From Minisyncoccota bacterium (GTDB lineage Bacteria; Patescibacteriota; Minisyncoccia; Phycocordibacterales; Phycocordibacteraceae): 64,000 bases of DNA. The position numbers and the translations under genes are program-made. The first letter of the stretch is position 1, and every line of letters begins with the position of its first letter. This document shows positions 4,463 through 24,472 of the stretch, one piece after another. Under the pieces are notes generated by a model. The model had not been told where the DNA came from and searched no databases. It worked only from the letters and a program-made list of their open reading frames with translations. The DNA is taken from positions 2,157 through 66,156 of the forward strand of contig JBAZRE010000003.1 in the NCBI GenBank assembly GCA_041663025.1, written 5' to 3'.

Positions 4463-6854
4463 GAAAACACCAGCGAAGAAAAGAATAGTGCTTCTTGATA
4501 CACACGCGATTATTCATCGCGCGTATCACGCCTTGCCAGAGTTTACTGGTCCCACCGGTGCGCCGACAGGCGCTCTCTACGGACTTGTCTCAATGTTGCT
4601 TAAGATTATTACCGATCTCAAGCCCGATTATATTGCTGCATGCTACGACTTGCCCAAGCCGACGATTCGTCATGAGGCATATGAGGGATATAAGGGCACG
4701 CGAGGCCCAACTGATGACGCGCTTGTTGAACAGCTCAAAGAATCGCGAAAGGTGTTTGAGGCGTTCTCTATCCCGACGTATGAAAAAGAAGGATTCGAAG
4801 CCGACGATATTCTCGGCACGATTGCCGAAAAGATAAAAAATACTGCAGATGTCATAATTGCGTCGGGTGACATGGACACGCTCCAGCTTGTCGACGATGA
4901 GCGGGTTCGAGTCTATACCTTAAAAAAGGGCATCAATGACACAATTCTCTACGACGAGAAGGAAGTCATAGCGCGATTTGGTTTCTTACCCTCTTTGATT
5001 CCCGATTGGAAGGGTCTTCGTGGCGACCCCTCTGACAACATTAAGGGCGTGAAGGGTATCGGCGAGAAGACCGCGACCGAACTTGTTACCACATTTGGCA
5101 CAATTGAAAAAATATATGTAGCATTAAAAAAGAGCGACGCGGCATTTACAAAAAAAGGTATCAAACCTCGTGTTCTTGCGCTTCTGAAAGAAGGTGAAGA
5201 AGACGCGCGCTTTTCAAAATCACTAGCCACAATACGATGCGACGCACCCGTCGCTTTTGTTTTGCCAGAAAATGACTGGAGAGAAAACGTCGAGATACAA
5301 AAAGTGCTCGCGATGTTTGATGATTTTGGTTTCAGGTCGCTGAAAGCGCGGATGAGGACCGTTCTCGGCGCACAAACGCAATTTGATGAACCTTTGGGTC
5401 CGCACACGACGGATAACGACAGATCAGACGCCACGCCAAAGCCTTCACAAATTGCGCCGGAGCGTCTTGCGGAAGCCGGCGTTATGCTCTGGCTCATTTC
5501 GTCAGACTTCACGAACCCATCGCTTGATGACATTCTCGCATTTACCAAAGAGCGAACTTTTGACGCGGCATATGCGGTGCTCGAGAAGCAGCTTGCAGAG
5601 CTCGGCAGAGTGCGTGATGTGTATGAAAAAATTGAGAAACCACTCATTCCTGTTGTTGATCAGATGGAGATACGAGGCATTCTTGTTGATCCCAAGGTAC
5701 TAAGTGACCTCGACAAGAAGTACAGCGCTGAGCTCTCAGAAATAGAAAAACGCATTTATAAAGACGCCGGACGCGAATTTAATATCAACTCGCCGAAACA
5801 ACTCGGAGAAGTGCTGTTTGACGAGTTGAAAATTATTCCAGAGAGACAAAAGAAAACAGCCGGCGGTCAGCGTTCAACACGCGAAAGCGAGCTTGAGAAA
5901 ATGCGCGAGATGCACCCGATTATCAGCGACATTCTTGAATACCGCGAGTTGAAAAAATTGCTTTCAACCTATATTAAGAATCTGCCGCCGATGCTCGACG
6001 CGGAGAATCGCCTCCACGCGGAGTTTATTCAGACCGGCGCGGTTACCGGACGCATGGCAAGTCAGAATCCGAACCTTCAGAATATCCCTCTGCGTTCAGA
6101 GCGCGGGCAGGCGATACGCCACGCATTTGTTGCGACGAATGGATTCACGCTTGTCTCAATTGATTATTCGCAAATAGAATTGCGGCTCGCCGCAATTCTC
6201 TCGGGGGATGAAAAGCTTTGCGAGATATTCCGCACCGGCAGGGATGTACACACTGAGGTTGCGGCGCGCGTCTTCCGTGTTGCGCCAGAAAAAGTTTATG
6301 CAGAGATGCGTCGCCGCGCCAAGGTGATCAACTTCGGCATTCTCTACGGCATGGGAGTAAATGCACTTCGCGCACAGCTCGGTTCGACTACTGCCGAAGC
6401 TCACCAGTATCTTGAAGATTATTTCACCACCTTCAAAACACTTGCAGAATATCTTGAAAGCACGAAAGGATTTGCGCGTAAGCATGGTTATACTGAGACC
6501 CTATTTGGCCGTCGTAGGCAGTTCCAAGAGATGAAGTCATCTCTGCCGTATGTGCGCGCGCAGGCCGAGCGCATGGCGATTAACGCGCCAATACAAGGGA
6601 CGTCGGCAGATATGATTAAGCTCGCGATGGTAGAAGTACACAAGATGCTTGAAAAGAATAGTTGGACTGAAGATGCGCACCTCCTCCTTTCTGTGCACGA
6701 TGAATTAGTGTACGAGATTCACGATAGTCAAAAAGATGAGATTGGCGCGCAGATTAAAAAAATAATGGAGTCTATGCTTTCAATCAAAGAAACAAACGGT
6801 GTGCCGATTGTTGCAACGATGAAATCAGGCCCAAACTGGGGTTCATTAACATGA
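4455..6854 (+). CDS. polA: DNA polymerase I (5'-3' exonuclease plus polymerase domains; no obvious intact 3'-5' exonuclease motifs)
   Basis: 799 aa. N-terminal FEN/5'-3' exo domain (LLDTHAIIHRAYHA), polymerase motif A (DYSQIELR) and motif C (VHDELV). It overlaps tsaE by 8 nt. Confidence 0.9.
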   Translation: MAKKTPAKKRIVLLDTHAIIHRAYHALPEFTGPTGAPTGALYGLVSMLLKIITDLKPDYIAACYDLPKPTIRHEAYEGYKGTRGPTDDALVEQLKESRKVFEAFSIPTYEKEGFEADDILGTIAEKIKNTADVIIASGDMDTLQLVDDERVRVYTLKKGINDTILYDEKEVIARFGFLPSLIPDWKGLRGDPSDNIKGVKGIGEKTATELVTTFGTIEKIYVALKKSDAAFTKKGIKPRVLALLKEGEEDARFSKSLATIRCDAPVAFVLPENDWRENVEIQKVLAMFDDFGFRSLKARMRTVLGAQTQFDEPLGPHTTDNDRSDATPKPSQIAPERLAEAGVMLWLISSDFTNPSLDDILAFTKERTFDAAYAVLEKQLAELGRVRDVYEKIEKPLIPVVDQMEIRGILVDPKVLSDLDKKYSAELSEIEKRIYKDAGREFNINSPKQLGEVLFDELKIIPERQKKTAGGQRSTRESELEKMREMHPIISDILEYRELKKLLSTYIKNLPPMLDAENRLHAEFIQTGAVTGRMASQNPNLQNIPLRSERGQAIRHAFVATNGFTLVSIDYSQIELRLAAILSGDEKLCEIFRTGRDVHTEVAARVFRVAPEKVYAEMRRRAKVINFGILYGMGVNALRAQLGSTTAEAHQYLEDYFTTFKTLAEYLESTKGFARKHGYTETLFGRRRQFQEMKSSLPYVRAQAERMAINAPIQGTSADMIKLAMVEVHKMLEKNSWTEDAHLLLSVHDELVYEIHDSQKDEIGAQIKKIMESMLSIKETNGVPIVATMKSGPNWGSLT

Positions 6855-10778: not shown

Positions 10779-11375
10779 ATGGACTTTGCATCGAAAAACC
10801 TTACGGCTGGTCAGTTAAACGCAATCGTGAAAAAACTCGGCGGTGAAGAAATGGCTTTACGATTTCTTCGTGATGAGCTTACGGTTTCTGAACCGATTGC
10901 GAAAAAACTTCTCAACTTTGTCACCACGACCAACGTTTCCGAAGTCACCTCGTTCATCGTCAAGGACAAATTCCGCGAAGGTAAGACGACCGACGGCGTG
11001 AAAATCGCATGGCTTGGTTCCAACTTCAAAGAAAACTTCCTTGGCAAAACGGAACGGGGTATCGCTTCGGCGACACTTCGTATCCAGAAGCTAACGAAAG
11101 ACTCTTTGGACGCCCCGATTCTGACAGAACTTGGCGATACGGCGGAAACGACACTTGCACAACTCTGGGAACTGATGAAGCTGCAGGGCTCCGGCCAAGA
11201 AGGAAAACTCCTCGTTAACGGTTGGGCGAATATCGTCTATATCCGCGACAAGAACGAAAACCTCTGGGCCGTGTACGCGCGCTGGAGCTCCGGCAGCGAC
11301 GGGTGGGTCGTTGGAGCCTATTCGGTCGAGAGCCCGGGTAGGTGGGGTGCCGACTTTCAGGTCGTCTCCCGCTGA
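10779..11375 (+). CDS. DGR-1 target (variable) protein; C-terminal 37 aa encoded by the variable repeat
   Basis: 198 aa with no signal peptide. The C-terminus ...LWAVYARWSSGSDGWVVGAYSVESPGRWGADFQVVSR is encoded by VR1, which matches TR1 except at TR adenines. Confidence 0.8.
   Translation: MDFASKNLTAGQLNAIVKKLGGEEMALRFLRDELTVSEPIAKKLLNFVTTTNVSEVTSFIVKDKFREGKTTDGVKIAWLGSNFKENFLGKTERGIASATLRIQKLTKDSLDAPILTELGDTAETTLAQLWELMKLQGSGQEGKLLVNGWANIVYIRDKNENLWAVYARWSSGSDGWVVGAYSVESPGRWGADFQVVSR
11262..11374 (+). repeat. DGR-1 variable repeat (VR1), 113 bp
   Basis: Aligns base-for-base with TR1 (11688-11800). I count 17 mismatches, and every one is A in TR1 versus T, G or C in VR1. Confidence 0.9.
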
Positions 11376-11405
11376 TTCTTTTCAACTCTGATCTTTTTGA
11401 ACCTT

Positions 11406-11456
11406 AGACCCTTTGAATCTTTGCCATTTTGGCATTGAAACGAAGGGTCTTTTGTT
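11406..11456 (+). terminator. Intrinsic terminator after DGR-1 target gene
   Basis: agaccctt...gccattttggc...aagggtct nested hairpin followed by TTTTGTT. Confidence 0.55.
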
Positions 11457-11687
11457 ATAATAAAAACAAGGATGTCTTGGGTGCGGCGAGCATGCTCTTC
11501 GCACAGCGCCTTGGGAAATCAGTACTCCAGAATTGTGTCGAGCATGCTCGCCATGAGCGCGGGTACGATTGTCCAAAAAAAGATTAGAATCGGTGTGCGA
11601 TGTTGGTGGACTTTGATGTCCCGAATCAGGTACAACCTTGAGAGTATTCAAGAGGTGGTGGTATGGATGGCATCACACACAAACGTG

Positions 11688-11800
11688 CTCTGGGCCGTGA
11701 ACGCGAACTGGAACTCCGGCAACGACGGGTGGAACGTTGAAGCCAATTCGGTCGAGAACCCGAATAGGTGGAGTGCCGACAATCAGGTCGTCTCCCGCAA
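11688..11800 (+). repeat. DGR-1 template repeat (TR1), 113 bp
   Basis: Asn-codon (AAC) rich copy of VR1. Reading frame LWAVNANWNSGNDGWNVEANSVENPNRWSADNQVVSR. Followed by a hairpin plus T-run at 11812-11840. Confidence 0.9.
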
Positions 11801-12208
11801 CTCTCGTCTTTTCCCGTCTCCACTTGGAGGCGGGTTTTTCGCTATAATACCTCTCTTCCATCCACCGACCATGCGTCCTATTTCTTCAACATCTTTCCCG
11901 AGTGATATAAAATGGCTCTGCGCCATGAGTCCTGATTCCCACGCGATTTGGATAAAGAAGCGAACAGCATCAACAGCACGAATTGCTTCTTCAAGTGGGG
12001 GCAATTTTTGGTCGATCGATGCGTATGCGGTTTTACGTAGTGCGTCTAATAAGTTAAGCCAGAGCTTGTCGATCCGGTCACCAATACCGAAGCGCTCTGA
12101 ACGCGCCATTTTCCGATGAGCGACGAGCCAAATTTTGTAAGCGACTTTAGCTCGCTCAATCACCGGCAAAAGCTTCTGGGGGGGGGTTACTTCTAGGAAG
12201 AAATTCAC
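11783..12208 (-). CDS. avd: Avd-like accessory variability determinant (four-helix-bundle protein, 23S rRNA IVS protein family)
   Basis: 141 aa with heptad-rich helical pattern FGIGDRIDKLWLNLLDALRK...EEIGRMVGGWKRG resembling phage BPP-1 Avd and PF05635 proteins. It lies between TR1 and the RT but on the opposite strand. Its N-terminus overlaps the poly-G tract as poly-Pro. Confidence 0.7.
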   Translation of the reverse strand: MNFFLEVTPPQKLLPVIERAKVAYKIWLVAHRKMARSERFGIGDRIDKLWLNLLDALRKTAYASIDQKLPPLEEAIRAVDAVRFFIQIAWESGLMAQSHFISLGKDVEEIGRMVGGWKRGIIAKNPPPSGDGKRRELRETT

Positions 12209-13187
12209 TCATACGTATGAGAGTATCATTTCGGTTGAAAATATTCTCGGCGCGTGGCGAGAATTTATAAAAGGGAAGAGGAAACGTACTGACGTACAAG
12301 AATTTGAAAGATATTTGATGCATAACGTTTTAGAACTGCACCAAGAACTCGTGGCAGGCACCTATCAACATGGCGGCTATCACCATTTCAAGATCAGCGA
12401 CCCCAAGCCGCGCGACATTCATAAAGCGAGTGTGCGTGACCGACTGGTACACCACGCTCTTTATCGTCAACTCTATCCATTTTTTGACAAAACGTTCATC
12501 AGCGATTCGTATTCATGCCGAAGAGAGAAGGGGACACATAAGGCGATGAACCGCTTCAGAGCCTTTGCGCGCAAGGTTTCTAAAAATAATACGCGCACCT
12601 GTTGGGTGTTGAAGTGCGATATCAGAAAATTCTTCGCATCTATCGATCAAGCCAAACTCATACAGATTCTTAAACAGCGAATATCAGACGAACGCATTGT
12701 CCAGCTTGTTGAGAAAGTCATCACGAGTTTCTCAAGTACTGAAAAAGGGAAGGGTCTACCACTCGGGAACCTCACCTCACAACTCCTCGTAAACATCTAT
12801 ATGAACAAGTTTGATCAGTTTGTTAAACATGAGCTAAAAGCAAAGCATTATATTCGCTACGCTGATGACTTTGTATTTTTATCATCCGACCGTTCATTTC
12901 TTACCTCACTTTTGCCCCTTATTCATAATTTTCTACATGACCATCTCGCTCTTGAGTTACATCCAGGTAAGGTCTCTATCAACACGCTTGCATCCGGCAT
13001 TGATTTCCTCGGCTGGGTGCATTTTCCAGACCATCGCGTTTTACGCACCTCTACCAAAAAGCGGATGTTCCGGCGTATTATAGAAACGAAAAGTAGGAAA
13101 GAAACAGTGCAGTCATATCTCGGCCTCTTGAGTCATGGCAACACACATAAACTGCAATCAGTTGCATTTTCTGACTACAACCTATAA
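12150..13187 (+). CDS. DGR reverse transcriptase (copy 1). Track ORF starts at TTG 12315, but the conserved RT N-terminus is in frame from 12150 with no ATG/GTG/TTG
   Basis: LPLGNLTSQLLVNIY is the DGR-specific [IVL]GxxxSQ motif (replacing QGxxxSP). RYADDFVF is the YxDD active site. Upstream in-frame codons encode ...KKFTHTYESIISVENILGAWREFIKGKRKRTDVQEFERYL, the conserved N-terminal extension of DGR RTs. Confidence 0.85.
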   Translation, partial: ARSITGKSFWGGVTSRKKFTHTYESIISVENILGAWREFIKGKRKRTDVQEFERYLMHNVLELHQELVAGTYQHGGYHHFKISDPKPRDIHKASVRDRLVHHALYRQLYPFFDKTFISDSYSCRREKGTHKAMNRFRAFARKVSKNNTRTCWVLKCDIRKFFASIDQAKLIQILKQRISDERIVQLVEKVITSFSSTEKGKGLPLGNLTSQLLVNIYMNKFDQFVKHELKAKHYIRYADDFVFLSSDRSFLTSLLPLIHNFLHDHLALELHPGKVSINTLASGIDFLGWVHFPDHRVLRTSTKKRMFRRIIETKSRKETVQSYLGLLSHGNTHKLQSVAFSDYNL

Positions 13188-13757: not shown

Positions 13758-13805
13758 GCACAGAAATAGAAAACACCGCGCAGGCGGTGTTTTCTATTTC
13801 TGTGC
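13758..13805. terminator. Perfect 22 bp-stem hairpin abutting the 3' end of tRNA-Arg(GCG); likely terminator or processing signal
   Basis: gcacagaaatagaaaacaccgc / gcag / gcggtgttttctatttctgtgc. The last 3 nt are the tRNA 3' end. Confidence 0.5.
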
Positions 13806-13875
13806 CCCCACGAGGAATCGAACCTCGATTACGACCTCCGCAAGGTCGCGTCCTGATCCGTTGAACGACAGGGGC
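13803..13875 (-). tRNA. tRNA-Arg with anticodon read as GCG (unusual isoacceptor, tentative)
   Basis: Reverse complement GCCCCTGTCGTTCAACGGATCAGGACGCGACCTTGCGGAGGTCGTAATCGAGGTTCGATTCCTCGTGGGGGCA. Anticodon stem CGACC/GGTCG with loop TTGCGGA. T-arm CGAGG/CCTCG. Acceptor has two G-U pairs. Confidence 0.6.
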
Positions 13876-13880
13876 GGTAT

Positions 13881-14288
13881 TTACTCTTCGTACTTCTGTG
13901 CAATCTGTTGTCCGAGTGAGAGAAGCTCTCTTAGTATCGAACTACCGGAATAGACGATAGAACAGATGCCTCGAAAGTTTTTCCGAAAACGCTTCAGCAC
14001 ACTTCGCTTTTTAACATAGATTTTACCAAATTGCGACTCTGGTACCCCGAGAAGCTTTGACCAGAAGGCAATTGATTCACGATGTTTATGATAATAATGG
14101 AGGTGTAAACGGACACGGATCTTACTTTCATCTAATGAATACGATGATCGTAGGAGTGTTAAATATAATTTTGCCAACGCAGGATCCGTATTTACGAACT
14201 TCATTTGAGCTTTTGCTCCCTCTGCCCAGTACAACATGGCAAGGAGCGATTTTTGGACGTTTTTATCCTTGATTGGTAACCGTATCAA
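13881..14288 (-). CDS. Putative single-motif LAGLIDADG-family homing endonuclease; ends 5 nt upstream of tRNA-Arg(GCG)
   Basis: 135 aa. SLLAMLYWAEGAK resembles the LAG(L/F)(I/V)DGEG motif. Basic C-terminal region KIYVKKRSVLKRFRKNFRG is typical of DNA-binding endonuclease tails. Assignment is weak. Confidence 0.4.
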   Translation of the reverse strand: MIRLPIKDKNVQKSLLAMLYWAEGAKAQMKFVNTDPALAKLYLTLLRSSYSLDESKIRVRLHLHYYHKHRESIAFWSKLLGVPESQFGKIYVKKRSVLKRFRKNFRGICSIVYSGSSILRELLSLGQQIAQKYEE

Positions 14289-14343
14289 TACCTTTTTGCT
14301 TTTTCAGAAGCTAGCATCAGGCGGTCCTCATGTTGTGGATAAG

Positions 14344-21536: not shown

Positions 21537-21608
21537 GCCCTGATAGTTCAATGGATAGAACACCGGACTTCTAAGCCGGTTATGTAGGTCCGATTCCTAC
21601 TCGGGGCA
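21537..21608 (+). tRNA. tRNA-Arg (anticodon TCT)
   Basis: GCCCTGATAGTTCAATGGATAGAACACCGGACTTCTAAGCCGGTTATGTAGGTCCGATTCCTACTCGGGGCA. D-stem GTTC/GAAC. Anticodon loop CTTCTAA. T-arm GTAGG/CCTAC. Confidence 0.8.
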
Positions 21609-21609
21609 C

Positions 21610-21691
21610 GGGCACGTGGCGGAACTGGTATACGCGTACGTCTCAGAAGCGTATGGGGCAACCCTTGAGAGTTCAAATCTCTCCGCGCCCA
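21610..21691 (+). tRNA. tRNA-Leu (anticodon CAG), class II with long variable arm
   Basis: GGGCACGTGGCGGAACTGGTATACGCGTACGTCTCAGAAGCGTATGGGGCAACCCTTGAGAGTTCAAATCTCTCCGCGCCCA. Anticodon stem TACGT/GCGTA with loop CTCAGAA. Variable arm GGG/CCC. One A-C mismatch in the acceptor. Confidence 0.7.
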
Positions 21692-21692
21692 C

Positions 21693-21765
21693 GGGCGATT
21701 AGCTCAGCTGGTAGAGCAACGAGTTTACACCTCGAAGGTCACAGGTTCGAGTCCTGTATCGCCCA
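21693..21765 (+). tRNA. tRNA-Val (anticodon TAC)
   Basis: GGGCGATTAGCTCAGCTGGTAGAGCAACGAGTTTACACCTCGAAGGTCACAGGTTCGAGTCCTGTATCGCCCA. Anticodon loop TTTACAC. Confidence 0.8.
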
Positions 21766-21771
21766 CAAAAT

Positions 21772-22464: not shown

Positions 22465-22980
22465 ATGGAGAAGGTTATAACGACAGTCAATGTAGAGGGA
22501 CGCGCGAAGCTCGGGCTTCGCGCGGGTGATACGGTACGTGTCACTCAGAACATCATTGAGCTCAAGAAGGGTCGCGGCACCGACAAGAAGGAGAAGACCA
22601 TCAAGAATGCTCGCAAGCAGGATTATGTTGGACTCGTTATGGCAGTGAAGCACGGCACAGAAGCGGGAGCATCATTCACCGTTCGTGCAGTTCTTTCGGG
22701 TGTTGGAGTTGAGAAGACCTTCCCACTTTACTCCCCGATGATCGACTCGATCGAGATCGTGAAGCGCTCGAAGGTGCGCCGCGCCAAGCTCTACTTCATC
22801 CGCGAGAAGGCAGCCAAGGCGGTGCGTCGCCAGCTCCGCAACGCGCGCATGCTCAACATGAAGAGTGATGAGGCAATGCCTTCTGTTGCAGAAGAGGTAG
22901 TTCCAGAAGCCGTTGAAGATGTTGCAGTAGCAGAAGCTGAAGTTCCGGTCGCTGAACAAACAGAAGAAGTCGCGGCATAA
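22465..22980 (+). CDS. rplS: 50S ribosomal protein L19 with acidic C-terminal extension
   Basis: 171 aa. ...TFPLYSPMIDSIEIVKRSKVRRAKLYFIR is the L19 signature. The C-terminus is an Ala/Glu/Val-rich tail. Confidence 0.85.
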   Translation: MEKVITTVNVEGRAKLGLRAGDTVRVTQNIIELKKGRGTDKKEKTIKNARKQDYVGLVMAVKHGTEAGASFTVRAVLSGVGVEKTFPLYSPMIDSIEIVKRSKVRRAKLYFIREKAAKAVRRQLRNARMLNMKSDEAMPSVAEEVVPEAVEDVAVAEAEVPVAEQTEEVAA

Positions 22981-22991
22981 ATTTACAGACA

Positions 22992-23025
22992 AAAAAATCG
23001 AGTTATCCACTCGATTTTTCTTTAT
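22992..23025 (+). terminator. Intrinsic terminator after rplS
   Basis: aaaaaaatcgagt tatcc actcgatttttc: 7 bp stem followed by T-run. Confidence 0.6.
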
Positions 23026-23055
23026 ATATTATTGGTATACGCTTATACTTGAGGT

Positions 23056-23766
23056 ATGGGGTTGCGTGGACCAAAGCCTAGGAGAAGGGAAGTAATCTGG
23101 TCGCCAGAATTGGCGTACGCGATCGGGCTTATTGCGACTGACGGTTGTCTCTCAAATGATGGTAGACATTTATTATTCGTTTCTAAAGATCTTGAGCAGA
23201 TTAAAAATCTTAAGAAAGCGCTCGGACTTAAAGTAAAAATTGGTATCCATCGAGCAGGTGCTAGAATGAAAAACCGGCTTTATCACAGAGTGCAGTGGGG
23301 CGATGTCGTTTTCTATAACTTTTTACTTGAAATAGGACTTACACAGAACAAGTCTAAAACAATTGGAGTACTCGCTATACCAGACAAATACTTTTTCGAC
23401 TTCTTGCGTGGCAGCTTCGATGGCGATGGCTCCTTTTACAGTTATTTTGACCCACGTTGGAAATCGAGCTTTATGTATTACGTCAGTATAACTTCTGCAA
23501 GTTCATTGCACATCGATTGGTTGAGAGAAACACTTCATCGTCTACTTAGTGTAGACGGGCACATATCAAAAATGGGAGAAAATAGAGAAGATCGGAATCC
23601 AATATTTAATCTAAGGTTTGCAAAAAGAGAATCACTGCTAGTTATGAACGCCATGTACTCCACTTCTTGCTTGATACACCTATCTCGCAAAAGATTGAAA
23701 ATAGCGCGCGCTTTGCGTATAGTAGGGGAGTCATTGCTTTCGCGTAGAAAGAAATTGACGAAGTAA
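23056..23766 (+). CDS. Double-motif LAGLIDADG homing endonuclease; stop codon 1 nt before tRNA-Leu
   Basis: 236 aa with two canonical motifs LAYAIGLIATDGCLS and FLRGSFDGDGSF separated by about 95 aa. Confidence 0.8.
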   Translation: MGLRGPKPRRREVIWSPELAYAIGLIATDGCLSNDGRHLLFVSKDLEQIKNLKKALGLKVKIGIHRAGARMKNRLYHRVQWGDVVFYNFLLEIGLTQNKSKTIGVLAIPDKYFFDFLRGSFDGDGSFYSYFDPRWKSSFMYYVSITSASSLHIDWLRETLHRLLSVDGHISKMGENREDRNPIFNLRFAKRESLLVMNAMYSTSCLIHLSRKRLKIARALRIVGESLLSRRKKLTK

Positions 23767-23767
23767 T

Positions 23768-23851
23768 GCCCAGGTGGCGCAATTGGTACCCGCGCAGCCT
23801 TGAGGTGGCTGTGGTCGCAAGACCGTGGAGGTTCAAGTCCTCTCCTGGGCA
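23768..23851 (+). tRNA. tRNA-Leu (anticodon GAG), class II
   Basis: GCCCAGGTGGCGCAATTGGTACCCGCGCAGCCTTGAGGTGGCTGTGGTCGCAAGACCGTGGAGGTTCAAGTCCTCTCCTGGGCA. Anticodon stem CAGCC/GGCTG with loop TTGAGGT. Variable arm GGTC/GACC. Confidence 0.8.
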
Positions 23852-23962
23852 CTAAAACTAAATCGTGTTGCAGAACTTGTGTTCCTGCGGCTGGTCTGGT
23901 ATGACAGACAAAAGAAAAGAAAGATGGAAAAGGTCTTTGTACTTCAACAAAGGAGGTGACGA

Positions 23963-24472
23963 ATGAGAGATTTTCAGGGTAGTGTAGATGAATCAGCAAT
24001 TGTTTTAGAGGGAGTCTTCCCAGAAAGTGATTTAATTGTTTCTTCACCGCTTGAATTTTCCAGTCCACGTTCCGGGGTTTATGTTGAAGGTAGCCTCGAG
24101 CATGTGGAAATTATTTTCAAGCAACTTTTCGGTCTTTTGAATGTGTACATTGACGAAAAGCTTTTTGGCCGCTGGATTGGAGTAACTCCGCCTGCGGAAG
24201 ATTCGGCTCGCACAATCCTGCACTATGAAGCTGTGGCCGACTTTGAAAAAGTGAGACTGTTAAATTTCGTTTTTCGGGAACAGTTGGCAAAGATCTGTAA
24301 CATGCACCTATCTACTATCGCAGTTCTTTTCATCAAATTTGAGGGTAAGGAACTTGATCGGCGATGGGTCGCTTTGCCGGAGGGATTCGTGAACGGCAGC
24401 ATTCGTTTGCCGAAGTTAAAAACGAAAAAACCAGAAACCAGTTCTTGTCCCGCAGGAGAAAGCCTGCAGTAA
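23963..24472 (+). CDS. Hypothetical protein
   Basis: 169 aa ORF with no recognisable motifs. Followed by a strong terminator. Confidence 0.35.
   Translation: MRDFQGSVDESAIVLEGVFPESDLIVSSPLEFSSPRSGVYVEGSLEHVEIIFKQLFGLLNVYIDEKLFGRWIGVTPPAEDSARTILHYEAVADFEKVRLLNFVFREQLAKICNMHLSTIAVLFIKFEGKELDRRWVALPEGFVNGSIRLPKLKTKKPETSSCPAGESLQ

Follow-up and report, generated by a model that had tools for sequence, protein, structure and literature searches.

What is an intact LAGLIDADG homing endonuclease gene doing in the narrow space between a ribosomal protein gene and a tRNA gene, with its stop codon a single nucleotide from the tRNA? This arrangement is found in a 64,000-nucleotide stretch of a Minisyncoccota bacterium genome (assembly GCA_041663025.1, contig JBAZRE010000003.1; hereafter the window, whose positions serve as coordinates throughout), where rplS, the endonuclease open reading frame (ORF) and tRNA-Leu(GAG) follow one another. 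An original prediction, made from the letters of the DNA, had described the ORF as a two-motif LAGLIDADG gene transcriptionally fused to a tRNA, and had suspected it of being mobile. Our analysis of the window and of related loci (numbered with the prefix L) points to a cassette of ~790 bp, inserted between rplS and tRNA-Leu(GAG) in Paceibacteria/Kaiserbacteria-like Patescibacteria. We consider it likely that this cassette carries a free-standing, site-specific LAGLIDADG homing endonuclease that cuts the empty junction, and that the cassette replaces the promoter of the tRNA.

The ORF is an intact gene for a predicted monomeric, two-domain, two-motif LAGLIDADG homing endonuclease. Both motifs named in the original prediction, LAYAIGLIATDGCLS and FLRGSFDGDGSF, are present in the ORF, and the Pfam LAGLIDADG_3 model matches with 31.1 bits against a cut-off of 22.5. 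The acidic residues that close the motifs, D29 in GLIATDG and D124 in RGSFDGDG, align with the motifs of the archaeal intron endonuclease I-Tsp061I and are among the 40 invariant columns of a 36-member family alignment; truncation or inactivation of a motif, which would have spoken against the prediction, was not seen. An AlphaFold model of the protein (pLDDT 88.8, pTM 0.87) contains two alpha/beta domains, each with the order alpha-beta-beta-alpha-beta-beta-alpha, packed against one another via the motif helices. The best solved relative is I-Tsp061I, both in a profile search (E 2.4e-7) and in Foldseek (E 9e-11, 2DCH), followed among the fold matches by E-DreI, which is a chimera with an I-DmoI domain, an intein endonuclease, I-AniI and I-SceI, with I-DmoI itself lower. 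Foldseek returned 113 PDB matches at E <= 1e-3, and the 50 listed are all LAGLIDADG endonucleases, maturases, intein endonuclease domains or WhiA. In the domesticated class of LAGLIDADG proteins, represented by WhiA and the maturases, catalysis is lost and the gene is universal; here, the aspartates are invariant and most close relatives lack the gene.

I-Tsp061I and I-DmoI resemble the family described here in being single chains of ~200–235 aa with the same fold and two motifs, each with an acidic catalytic residue. They are, however, ~18% identical to it and encoded in archaeal rRNA introns, whereas the present family is free-standing and intergenic, at the flank of a tRNA gene. Two further conserved features set the family apart, a basic N-terminal arm (MGxRGPKPRR) and a C-terminal helix (RKRLKIxRALRIVG), and the DNA that encodes this helix doubles as a candidate promoter, as described below.

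The arrangement had been presented as unusual, but it is not peculiar to the window: it is the conserved architecture of a family that occupies the same site in at least 590 species. A protein search returned 3303 relatives, the best 120 of which are nearly all 215–270 aa long, apart from a few shorter partial entries; the few of these 120 that carry a source name are assigned to Patescibacteria, Kaiserbacteria or Minisyncoccia. In a scan of one genome per species, at least 590 loci encode a relative. The best 80 of these loci were analysed, and their endonucleases are 50–80% identical to that of the window. In these 80 species loci, rplS and usually also rluA precede the ORF, a same-strand tRNA-Leu(GAG) follows it wherever the contig extends far enough, and the order rluA-rplS-ORF-tRNA-Leu(GAG) is kept in nearly all.

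The ORF-tRNA junction is tight far beyond chance: across 87 filled loci, the spacing between stop codon and tRNA runs from -36 to +46 nt and is most often 1 nt (24 loci). Twelve of the 87 have the stop codon within the tRNA, and we speculate that processing would then leave an mRNA without a stop codon, which may limit expression. In the window, the succession of TAA, one T and an intact tRNA-Leu(GAG) is borne out by the ORF coordinates, by ARAGORN and by the Rfam tRNA model, which places the tRNA at 23768..23851 with 47.8 bits when the region is scanned alone. The same tRNA (23768–23852) was missed by an Rfam gathering scan of the full 64-kb window, owing to the filters of that scan. The downstream tRNAs of four related loci (L004, L007, L068 and L143) are reported by ARAGORN as 'tRNA-???' of 88–89 nt with a two-base anticodon 'tg'; they have an additional D-loop base (TGGCTAGAC or TTAGCAGAC) and long variable arms.

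A pattern scan of viral contigs for tRNA-Leu(GAG) gave 57 loci, none of them with the endonuclease or rplS. We rejected a phage origin on these grounds, and for the same reason fetched metagenome loci by RplS rather than by the tRNA pattern. Eighty metagenome loci were chosen with the RplS protein of the window as the only query, blind to the endonuclease (RplS 70–93% identical). Presence or absence of the ORF, a comparison that the original prediction had called for, was scorable in 69 of them: 44 are empty, 17 filled and 8 intermediate, carrying deletion remnants. Three further loci are filled but cut by contig ends, and removal of duplicates, with the window included, leaves 38 empty, 18 filled and 7 intermediate. 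In the empty loci, the tRNA begins 9–23 nt (mostly 10–12) past the rplS stop codon, and the tRNA-Leu type of the window is also present in empty alleles (L190, L194, L199). Endonucleases of the filled loci are 49–94% identical to that of the window, with lineages of ~50% and ~80% identity occurring in sister hosts (e.g. L053, L206).

On a neighbour-joining tree of the rplS core, empty, filled and intermediate states are intermixed. Stages of decay are also visible: the ORF has premature stop codons in L003, L019 and L034, in L161 a clean internal deletion has brought the rplS stop codon up against the final 79 nt of the cassette, L155 and L184 retain shorter stretches of its 3' end, and in L156 a 44-nt 3' remnant goes together with an rplS tail of the empty type. 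The endonuclease gene is dispensable and patchy, and this pattern fits the cycle of invasion, decay and loss of a homing endonuclease.

Comparison with host markers points in the same direction. Among 56 species loci, the pairwise identities of RplS and RluA are correlated (r = 0.76, Mantel p = 0.001), and the corresponding values for the endonuclease are r = 0.13 against RplS (Spearman -0.03) and r = 0.20 against RluA (Spearman 0.06). L006 and L049, for example, are 87% identical in RplS and 51% in the endonuclease. As judged from these sequence identities, endonuclease divergence is largely decoupled from host divergence, and its phylogeny is discordant. The suspected mobility is thus backed by presence and absence in close relatives, by remnants and by discordant phylogeny. 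At the same time, substitution patterns indicate that the protein is under strong purifying selection, with ratios of nonsynonymous to synonymous substitution rates (dN/dS) of 0.05–0.12 in 15 of the 16 closest pairs (0.06 for the window versus L138); in the remaining pair dS is saturated. The GC content of third codon positions (GC3) is 0.40 for the endonuclease gene, lower than the 0.55 of rplS.

Comparison with the empty junctions shows all sequence from the rplS stop codon to the tRNA to belong to the predicted insert. The original prediction had placed an rplS terminator and a 25-nt gap upstream of the ORF. An intrinsic-terminator-like hairpin with a T run is indeed found there (Table 1), but it belongs to the insert, because the empty alleles lack it and have no room for it before the tRNA. 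Likewise, the gap, ~30 nt when counted from the hairpin, is not featureless: a promoter-like site and a partial, 24-nt copy of tRNA-Leu are found in it. The -10 box of this candidate endonuclease promoter is separated from the ATG by 7 nt, so the endonuclease mRNA may be leaderless. Relatives have TTTACA-N17-TATACT or TTGGTA/TAGACG-N17-19-TATAAT in the corresponding region, and in 35 of 66 relatives a box with a 5–6/6 match to TATAAT is found 16–19 nt from the pseudo D-arm sequence TTGGTA or TAGACG.

The tRNA-like block has the consensus TTGGTAGACGCTAyTACCTTGAGG across the family. In the window, its local alignment to the cognate tRNA scores z = 6.4 against shuffles; z exceeds 3 in 36 of 78 filled loci versus none of 44 empty ones, and at least 61 of 87 filled loci have the motif. 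Compared by eye in the printed sequences, the block is closer to the family consensus than to the local tRNA, and in L066 the pseudo-tRNA spans the whole 5' half (positions 1–36). We dropped the idea that a pseudo-anticodon hairpin hides the start codon at the RNA level, because in most relatives the -10 box lies downstream and the hairpin would not be transcribed from the endonuclease promoter.

A 223-aa paralog, 49% identical to the endonuclease of the window, lies antisense between tRNA-Leu(CAG) and tRNA-Val(TAC) at positions 671–1342 of L154, and also in L171. A shortened tRNA-like block, GGTATACGCTAT, accompanies the L154 paralog at this other locus. In the window, tRNA-Arg(TCT), tRNA-Leu(CAG) and tRNA-Val(TAC) abut with 0-nt spacers at 21537–21766. 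The Leu(CAG)/Val(TAC) junction is, on this comparison, a predicted second homing site, which is empty in the window.

The second candidate promoter of the cassette is embedded in the 3' part of the ORF, and its -10 box ends 44 nt upstream of tRNA position 1. Conservation at its synonymous sites is high, with Leu encoded by TTG in 47/51 sequences, Lys by AAA in 48/51 and Ile by ATA in 48/51; the first T of the -10 box, a third codon position, is kept while the codon itself varies between Arg, Gly, Ala and Val, and Val-to-Ile changes convert TATAGT to TATAAT. A match of at least 10/12 to the promoter consensus is present in 50 of 87 filled loci, and the piece carrying it is kept in the remnants L161, L184 and L155. 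The L154 paralog, which has no tRNA downstream, is a natural control for the embedded promoter: it keeps the protein motif, but with the codons TTA AAG and ATC ATC, and the promoter is absent. The ORF and the tRNA are therefore probably not a simple transcriptional fusion as first proposed, although read-through from one into the other could still occur, since no terminator lies between them.

The empty alleles suggest what this promoter replaces. In these, a -10-like box (TATAGT or TATAAT) shares bases with the stop codon of rplS, 9–15 nt before the tRNA, so that insertion at this place would separate the tRNA from its native promoter. At the empty junction, for example in L190 and L194, the rplS tail GAAGTTGTAGTATAG is followed by the spacer TACTTTCACCT and then by the tRNA. 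The last codons of rplS differ systematically, reading GTTGTAGTATAG in empty and GTCGCnGCATAA in filled alleles, and the last ~15 nt of rplS in the window, gaagtcgcggcataa, are of the filled type, unlike the GAAGTTGTAGTATAG ending of the empties. As the type of rplS tail goes with occupancy, co-conversion of the flank is suggested. A T at position -1 of the tRNA is present in 40 of 44 empty and 69 of 87 filled loci; U at this position is preferred by bacterial RNase P.

Two further observations concern this junction. The C-terminal tail of RplS (window 22860–22980 and related loci) is acidic, rich in Glu, Ala and Val, and highly variable in length and sequence; its last five codons alone are conserved, in two forms that match the empty or filled state. 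Empty alleles among L149–L216 have a 5-nt leader, CACCT (or CACCC), complementary to tRNA positions 5–9 (AGGTG or GGGTG). This leader co-varies with the tRNA positions in L199 and L211, and a palindrome, CACCTGCCCAGGTG, is centred on the 5' end of the tRNA.

Table 1 Features of the endonuclease cassette, its flanks and the second tRNA-linked ORF in the window.
Feature	Position	Strand	Evidence and remarks
rplS (ribosomal protein L19)	22465..22980	+	Pfam Ribosomal_L19, E 4e-26; left flank
Intrinsic-terminator-like hairpin and T run	22993..23019	+	Terminator scan; RNA fold z = -3.6; TTATCCAC in loop (23003-23010)
Candidate endonuclease promoter, TTTATA-N17-TATACT	23021..23049	+	Consensus scan 9/12; putative function
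Pseudo-tRNA-Leu fragment, TTGGTATACGCTTATACTTGAGGT	23032..23055	+	D loop, 3' strand of D stem, 5' strand of anticodon stem, anticodon loop; ends at ATG
LAGLIDADG endonuclease ORF	23056..23766	+	236 aa, intact; ATG start, TAA at 23764-23766
Candidate tRNA-Leu(GAG) promoter, TTGAAA-N17-TATAGT	23695..23723	+	ORF codons 214-223; consensus scan 10/12
Single T, -1 base of tRNA precursor	23767..23767	+	Between ORF stop codon and tRNA
tRNA-Leu(GAG)	23768..23852	+	ARAGORN; complete type II tRNA, no encoded CCA
tRNA-Arg(GCG)	13802..13875		
Second tRNA-linked ORF	13881..14288	-	5'-truncated, 135 of ~225 codons; ends 5 nt before tRNA-Arg(GCG)

In the mechanism that we propose, the enzyme would cut the empty rplS-tRNA junction within the conserved GAAGTTGTAGTATAG / TATTTCCACCT / GCCCRGGTGG, and recombinational repair from a filled allele would copy in the cassette together with the last rplS codons. 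Such repair would require DNA exchange between cells, probably by DNA uptake. The cassette appears to be self-neutralising, in that it would provide a terminator for rplS, its own promoter over the tRNA relic and a new, embedded promoter for the tRNA; it would end exactly at the -1 U of the tRNA. Its own promoter would drive low-level expression of the endonuclease, and RNase P cleavage at 23767/23768 would free the tRNA as well as the 3' end of any read-through mRNA. Loss of the 3' end of the ORF would then silence the tRNA, which would explain why the remnants keep that piece.

The empty junction is one of two candidates for the cleavage site. The other, to which the 24-nt relic points, lies within the tRNA gene, in its D/anticodon-arm segment; as the tRNA of filled alleles is still intact, immunity is a difficulty for this target. 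In the single case of the L154 paralog, 8 nt separate the end of the ORF from TGCCGCGGGGG, which is the 3' end of tRNA-Leu(CAG) in reverse complement; this sequence resembles the T+GCCCAGGTGG that follows the ORF of the window and hints that the enzyme may recognise the end of the acceptor stem.

Several points weigh against a mobile, promoter-replacing cassette. The 80 species loci were picked by endonuclease similarity, which could flatten the correlation with host markers, and dN/dS values down to 0.05 would equally fit a gene that is useful to the host. Across loci, the GC3 of the endonuclease gene tracks that of the host (r = 0.77), and the window and its nearest relative are separated by a dS of 0.7; transfers would therefore not be recent, or would have taken place among similar hosts. 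We sought strain-level pairs of empty and filled alleles that would fix the edges of the insert, but found none closer than ~90% rplS DNA identity, so that the exact boundaries are deduced from a comparison at that distance. Finally, both candidate promoters are consensus matches whose backing comes from sequence conservation.

An alternative placement of the cut, which we regard as unlikely but which survives better than the other rivals, lies inside the D and anticodon arms of the tRNA, with the cassette bringing a new 5' part of the gene and the old half left upstream. The conserved 24-nt block has the size of a LAGLIDADG target and its conservation exceeds what a promoter spacer would need, and L066 retains a full pseudo 5' half. 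In arm-wise Mantel tests, similarity of the acceptor-5' and D-arm segments weakly tracks that of the endonuclease (r = 0.13 and 0.07; p = 0.01 and 0.03), and the variable and T arms show no such correlation. However, these correlations are weak and confounded by host relatedness, and we rejected the notion that tRNA arms travel with the endonuclease. The intact tRNA of filled alleles would still hold the target. We also rejected immunising substitutions in these tRNAs: no substitution clearly separates filled from empty alleles, the differences being modest (best p ~1e-3, uncorrected and not phylogenetically independent). Moreover, one tRNA type is shared by two endonuclease lineages and by empty alleles.

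The endonuclease might otherwise be a domesticated LAGLIDADG protein. Its gene would then belong to the host and pass on vertically, with repeated losses, and would have ceased to be a selfish mobile element; the product might regulate the rplS/tRNA-Leu locus, for instance, or be a tRNA-related factor. Synteny over a class-level clade, the purifying selection and the agreement of GC3 with the host all speak for such a role, as does the nearest-neighbour agreement with host markers in 10–13 of 56 loci, which indicates some vertical descent; in addition, the C-terminal RKRLKI motif is retained even in the L154 paralog, and LAGLIDADG-derived regulators (WhiA) and maturases are among the solved fold matches. 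Nevertheless, 44 of 69 close relatives do without the gene and retain a compact, uniform junction, and remnants and premature stop codons exist. Both catalytic aspartates are invariant, lineages that are ~50% identical occupy the same site in hosts with more than 80% RplS identity, and a paralog sits at another tRNA junction, unoccupied in the window. Taken together, these observations make domestication quite improbable in our view.

Least credible of all, with a very small probability, is an ORF within or derived from an intron in the anticodon loop of tRNA-Leu(GAG), the place where bacterial tRNA group I introns are located: the upstream fragment, which would be the 5' exon, does copy the tRNA from D loop to anticodon loop and ends at the ORF start, and L066 keeps positions 1–36, but an Rfam scan of 22900–24000 at E <= 10 gave the tRNA and two chance matches, with nothing except the tRNA at E < 1 and no group I intron, the space is taken up by the ORF, with no room left for a ribozyme core, the fragment is nearer to the family consensus than to the cognate tRNA and travels with the paralog to another locus, and the downstream tRNA is complete, canonical and of the type found in empty alleles. 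The completeness of this tRNA excludes a present-day intron structure, and the gene is free-standing, as the original prediction held; an ancestral intron is a possible source of the tRNA-like fragment.

Returning to the cassette-borne homing endonuclease, parallels in life style lie in T4-like phages, which have free-standing Seg and Mob endonucleases, with SegB within a tRNA gene cluster. As in those systems, the gene described here is free-standing between conserved genes beside a tRNA and is patchy, and flanking markers appear to be co-converted. Seg and Mob enzymes, however, are of the GIY-YIG or HNH type, reside in phage genomes and spread in mixed infections, whereas the present family is LAGLIDADG and is found on the chromosomes of ultrasmall bacteria, at one junction in hundreds of species. 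I-TevI, the GIY-YIG enzyme of a phage intron, represses itself by binding an operator that resembles its homing site and lies over its own promoter. The target-like sequence over the promoter of the endonuclease gene may be analogous, at the level of sequence overlap. Elements that integrate into tRNA genes likewise use the tRNA as a landing pad, keep it functional and leave a partial copy of it at the other end; unlike these, the cassette has no integrase or att-type repeat, duplicates the 5' half rather than the 3' end, and would replace the promoter.

To our knowledge, free-standing LAGLIDADG homing endonucleases are little documented in bacterial chromosomes. Bacteria of the candidate phyla radiation (CPR) have LAGLIDADG endonucleases in insertion sequences of their rRNA genes (J Bacteriol 2024, PMC11270868). 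These share with the present family the phylum, the enzyme superfamily and the choice of highly conserved RNA genes as targets, but they lie inside the 16S and 23S genes and are removed from the transcript, whereas the element of the window lies outside the RNA gene; the text of that study does not mention tRNA, free-standing or intergenic elements. Our literature search found no description of the tRNA-abutting arrangement, although its coverage was incomplete and it is thus not proof of absence.

On our reading, a single family would display invasion, fixation, decay and loss at one junction in hundreds of uncultured species. A selfish insert would have been made harmless and then hard to remove, by terminating the upstream gene and carrying the promoter of an essential tRNA in its own frame, which would provide a clear case of protein and promoter constraints acting on the same bases. 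The family also offers many natural variants of a compact monomeric meganuclease, with targets that could be read from the empty alleles. Caution is needed where rplS, a common phylogenetic marker, is used, as it would lie beside a recombination hot spot and its tail type follows occupancy.

The ORF at 13881 had been counted as a second fusion of the same kind. It does end next to a tRNA (Table 1), but it belongs to another family, of which the window has a 5'-truncated copy. Most of the 296 relatives of this ORF are 209–236 aa long, and they have an N-terminal helix-turn-helix domain. The full-length relative P0128 follows the same 157-aa gene as in the window and lies 5 nt before tRNA-Arg(GCG), so the copy in the window has lost ~90 N-terminal codons. 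The C-terminal domain is weakly LAGLIDADG-like (Foldseek match to I-DmoI, E 0.08, probability 0.98); the ORF has no Pfam match, and a profile search found no solved relative of this domain. We also sought a promoter embedded in the 13881 ORF and found none. Other members of the family adjoin tRNA-Val(GAC) in L073 and tRNA-Gly(GCC) in L078.

Further small ORFs are found beside tRNA genes in related loci. Cys-rich ORFs of ~164 aa end -15 to +26 nt from tRNA-His(GTG) in L001 (~6270–6769 of that locus), L003, L006, L021, L035, L057 and L063, and have a weak HNH_3 match (E 0.005, below cut-off). In the window, tRNA-His directly follows an adenosyltransferase gene, which suggests that the Cys-rich elements are also patchy. 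At tRNA-Arg(TCT), L001 (~1750–2060) and L071 have ORFs of ~103 aa that show a CxxC...DH...CxxCH pattern and stop at the tRNA; the window has neither kind of ORF beside these tRNA genes.

A broader and tentative interpretation, which we consider possible rather than probable, is that several unrelated families of free-standing homing endonucleases use the outer ends of tRNA genes in Patescibacteria as general landing pads. Candidates would be the LAGLIDADG family at tRNA-Leu(GAG) and the Leu(CAG)/Val(TAC) junction, the family with a helix-turn-helix and a LAGLIDADG-like domain at tRNA-Arg(GCG), tRNA-Val(GAC) and tRNA-Gly(GCC), and the Zn-ribbon/HNH-like ORFs at tRNA-His and tRNA-Arg(TCT). By placing a substitute tRNA promoter in its coding sequence, the tRNA-Leu family would have avoided orphaning the tRNA, and it would keep the relic 5' half as a promoter or operator of its own. 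If true, this would place the original insertion inside the tRNA gene, repaired by a part of the tRNA that the element itself carried.

The hairpin-loop sequence TTATCCAC is present in 22 of 87 filled upstream regions, and in none of the 87 ORF bodies or 44 empty alleles. We considered it as an operator private to the cassette and rejected this, since it recurs upstream of other genes in the window, which makes a host promoter-proximal motif more likely. In the form TTATCCAC(A), identical to the core of the DnaA box, it occurs at 1730, 23003, 51257, 57298 and 61145 on the forward strand and at 14335 on the reverse strand. All six copies lie in non-coding-looking regions, ~25–35 nt before a TATA-like box and roughly 50–70 nt before an ATG; three of the six follow a T run, and both tRNA-linked ORFs are preceded by a copy. 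TTATCCAC(A) may be a promoter-proximal motif of these bacteria.

Elsewhere in the window, a diversity-generating retroelement spans 10779–13187. It includes a reverse transcriptase ORF (12315..13187; RVT_1, LGNLTSQ motif) and a 111-nt repeat, with one copy at 11262–11372, the 3' end of the ORF 10779..11375, and the other at 11688–11798. The two copies are 86% identical, and the mismatches are all A in the second copy, as expected of a template/variable repeat pair.

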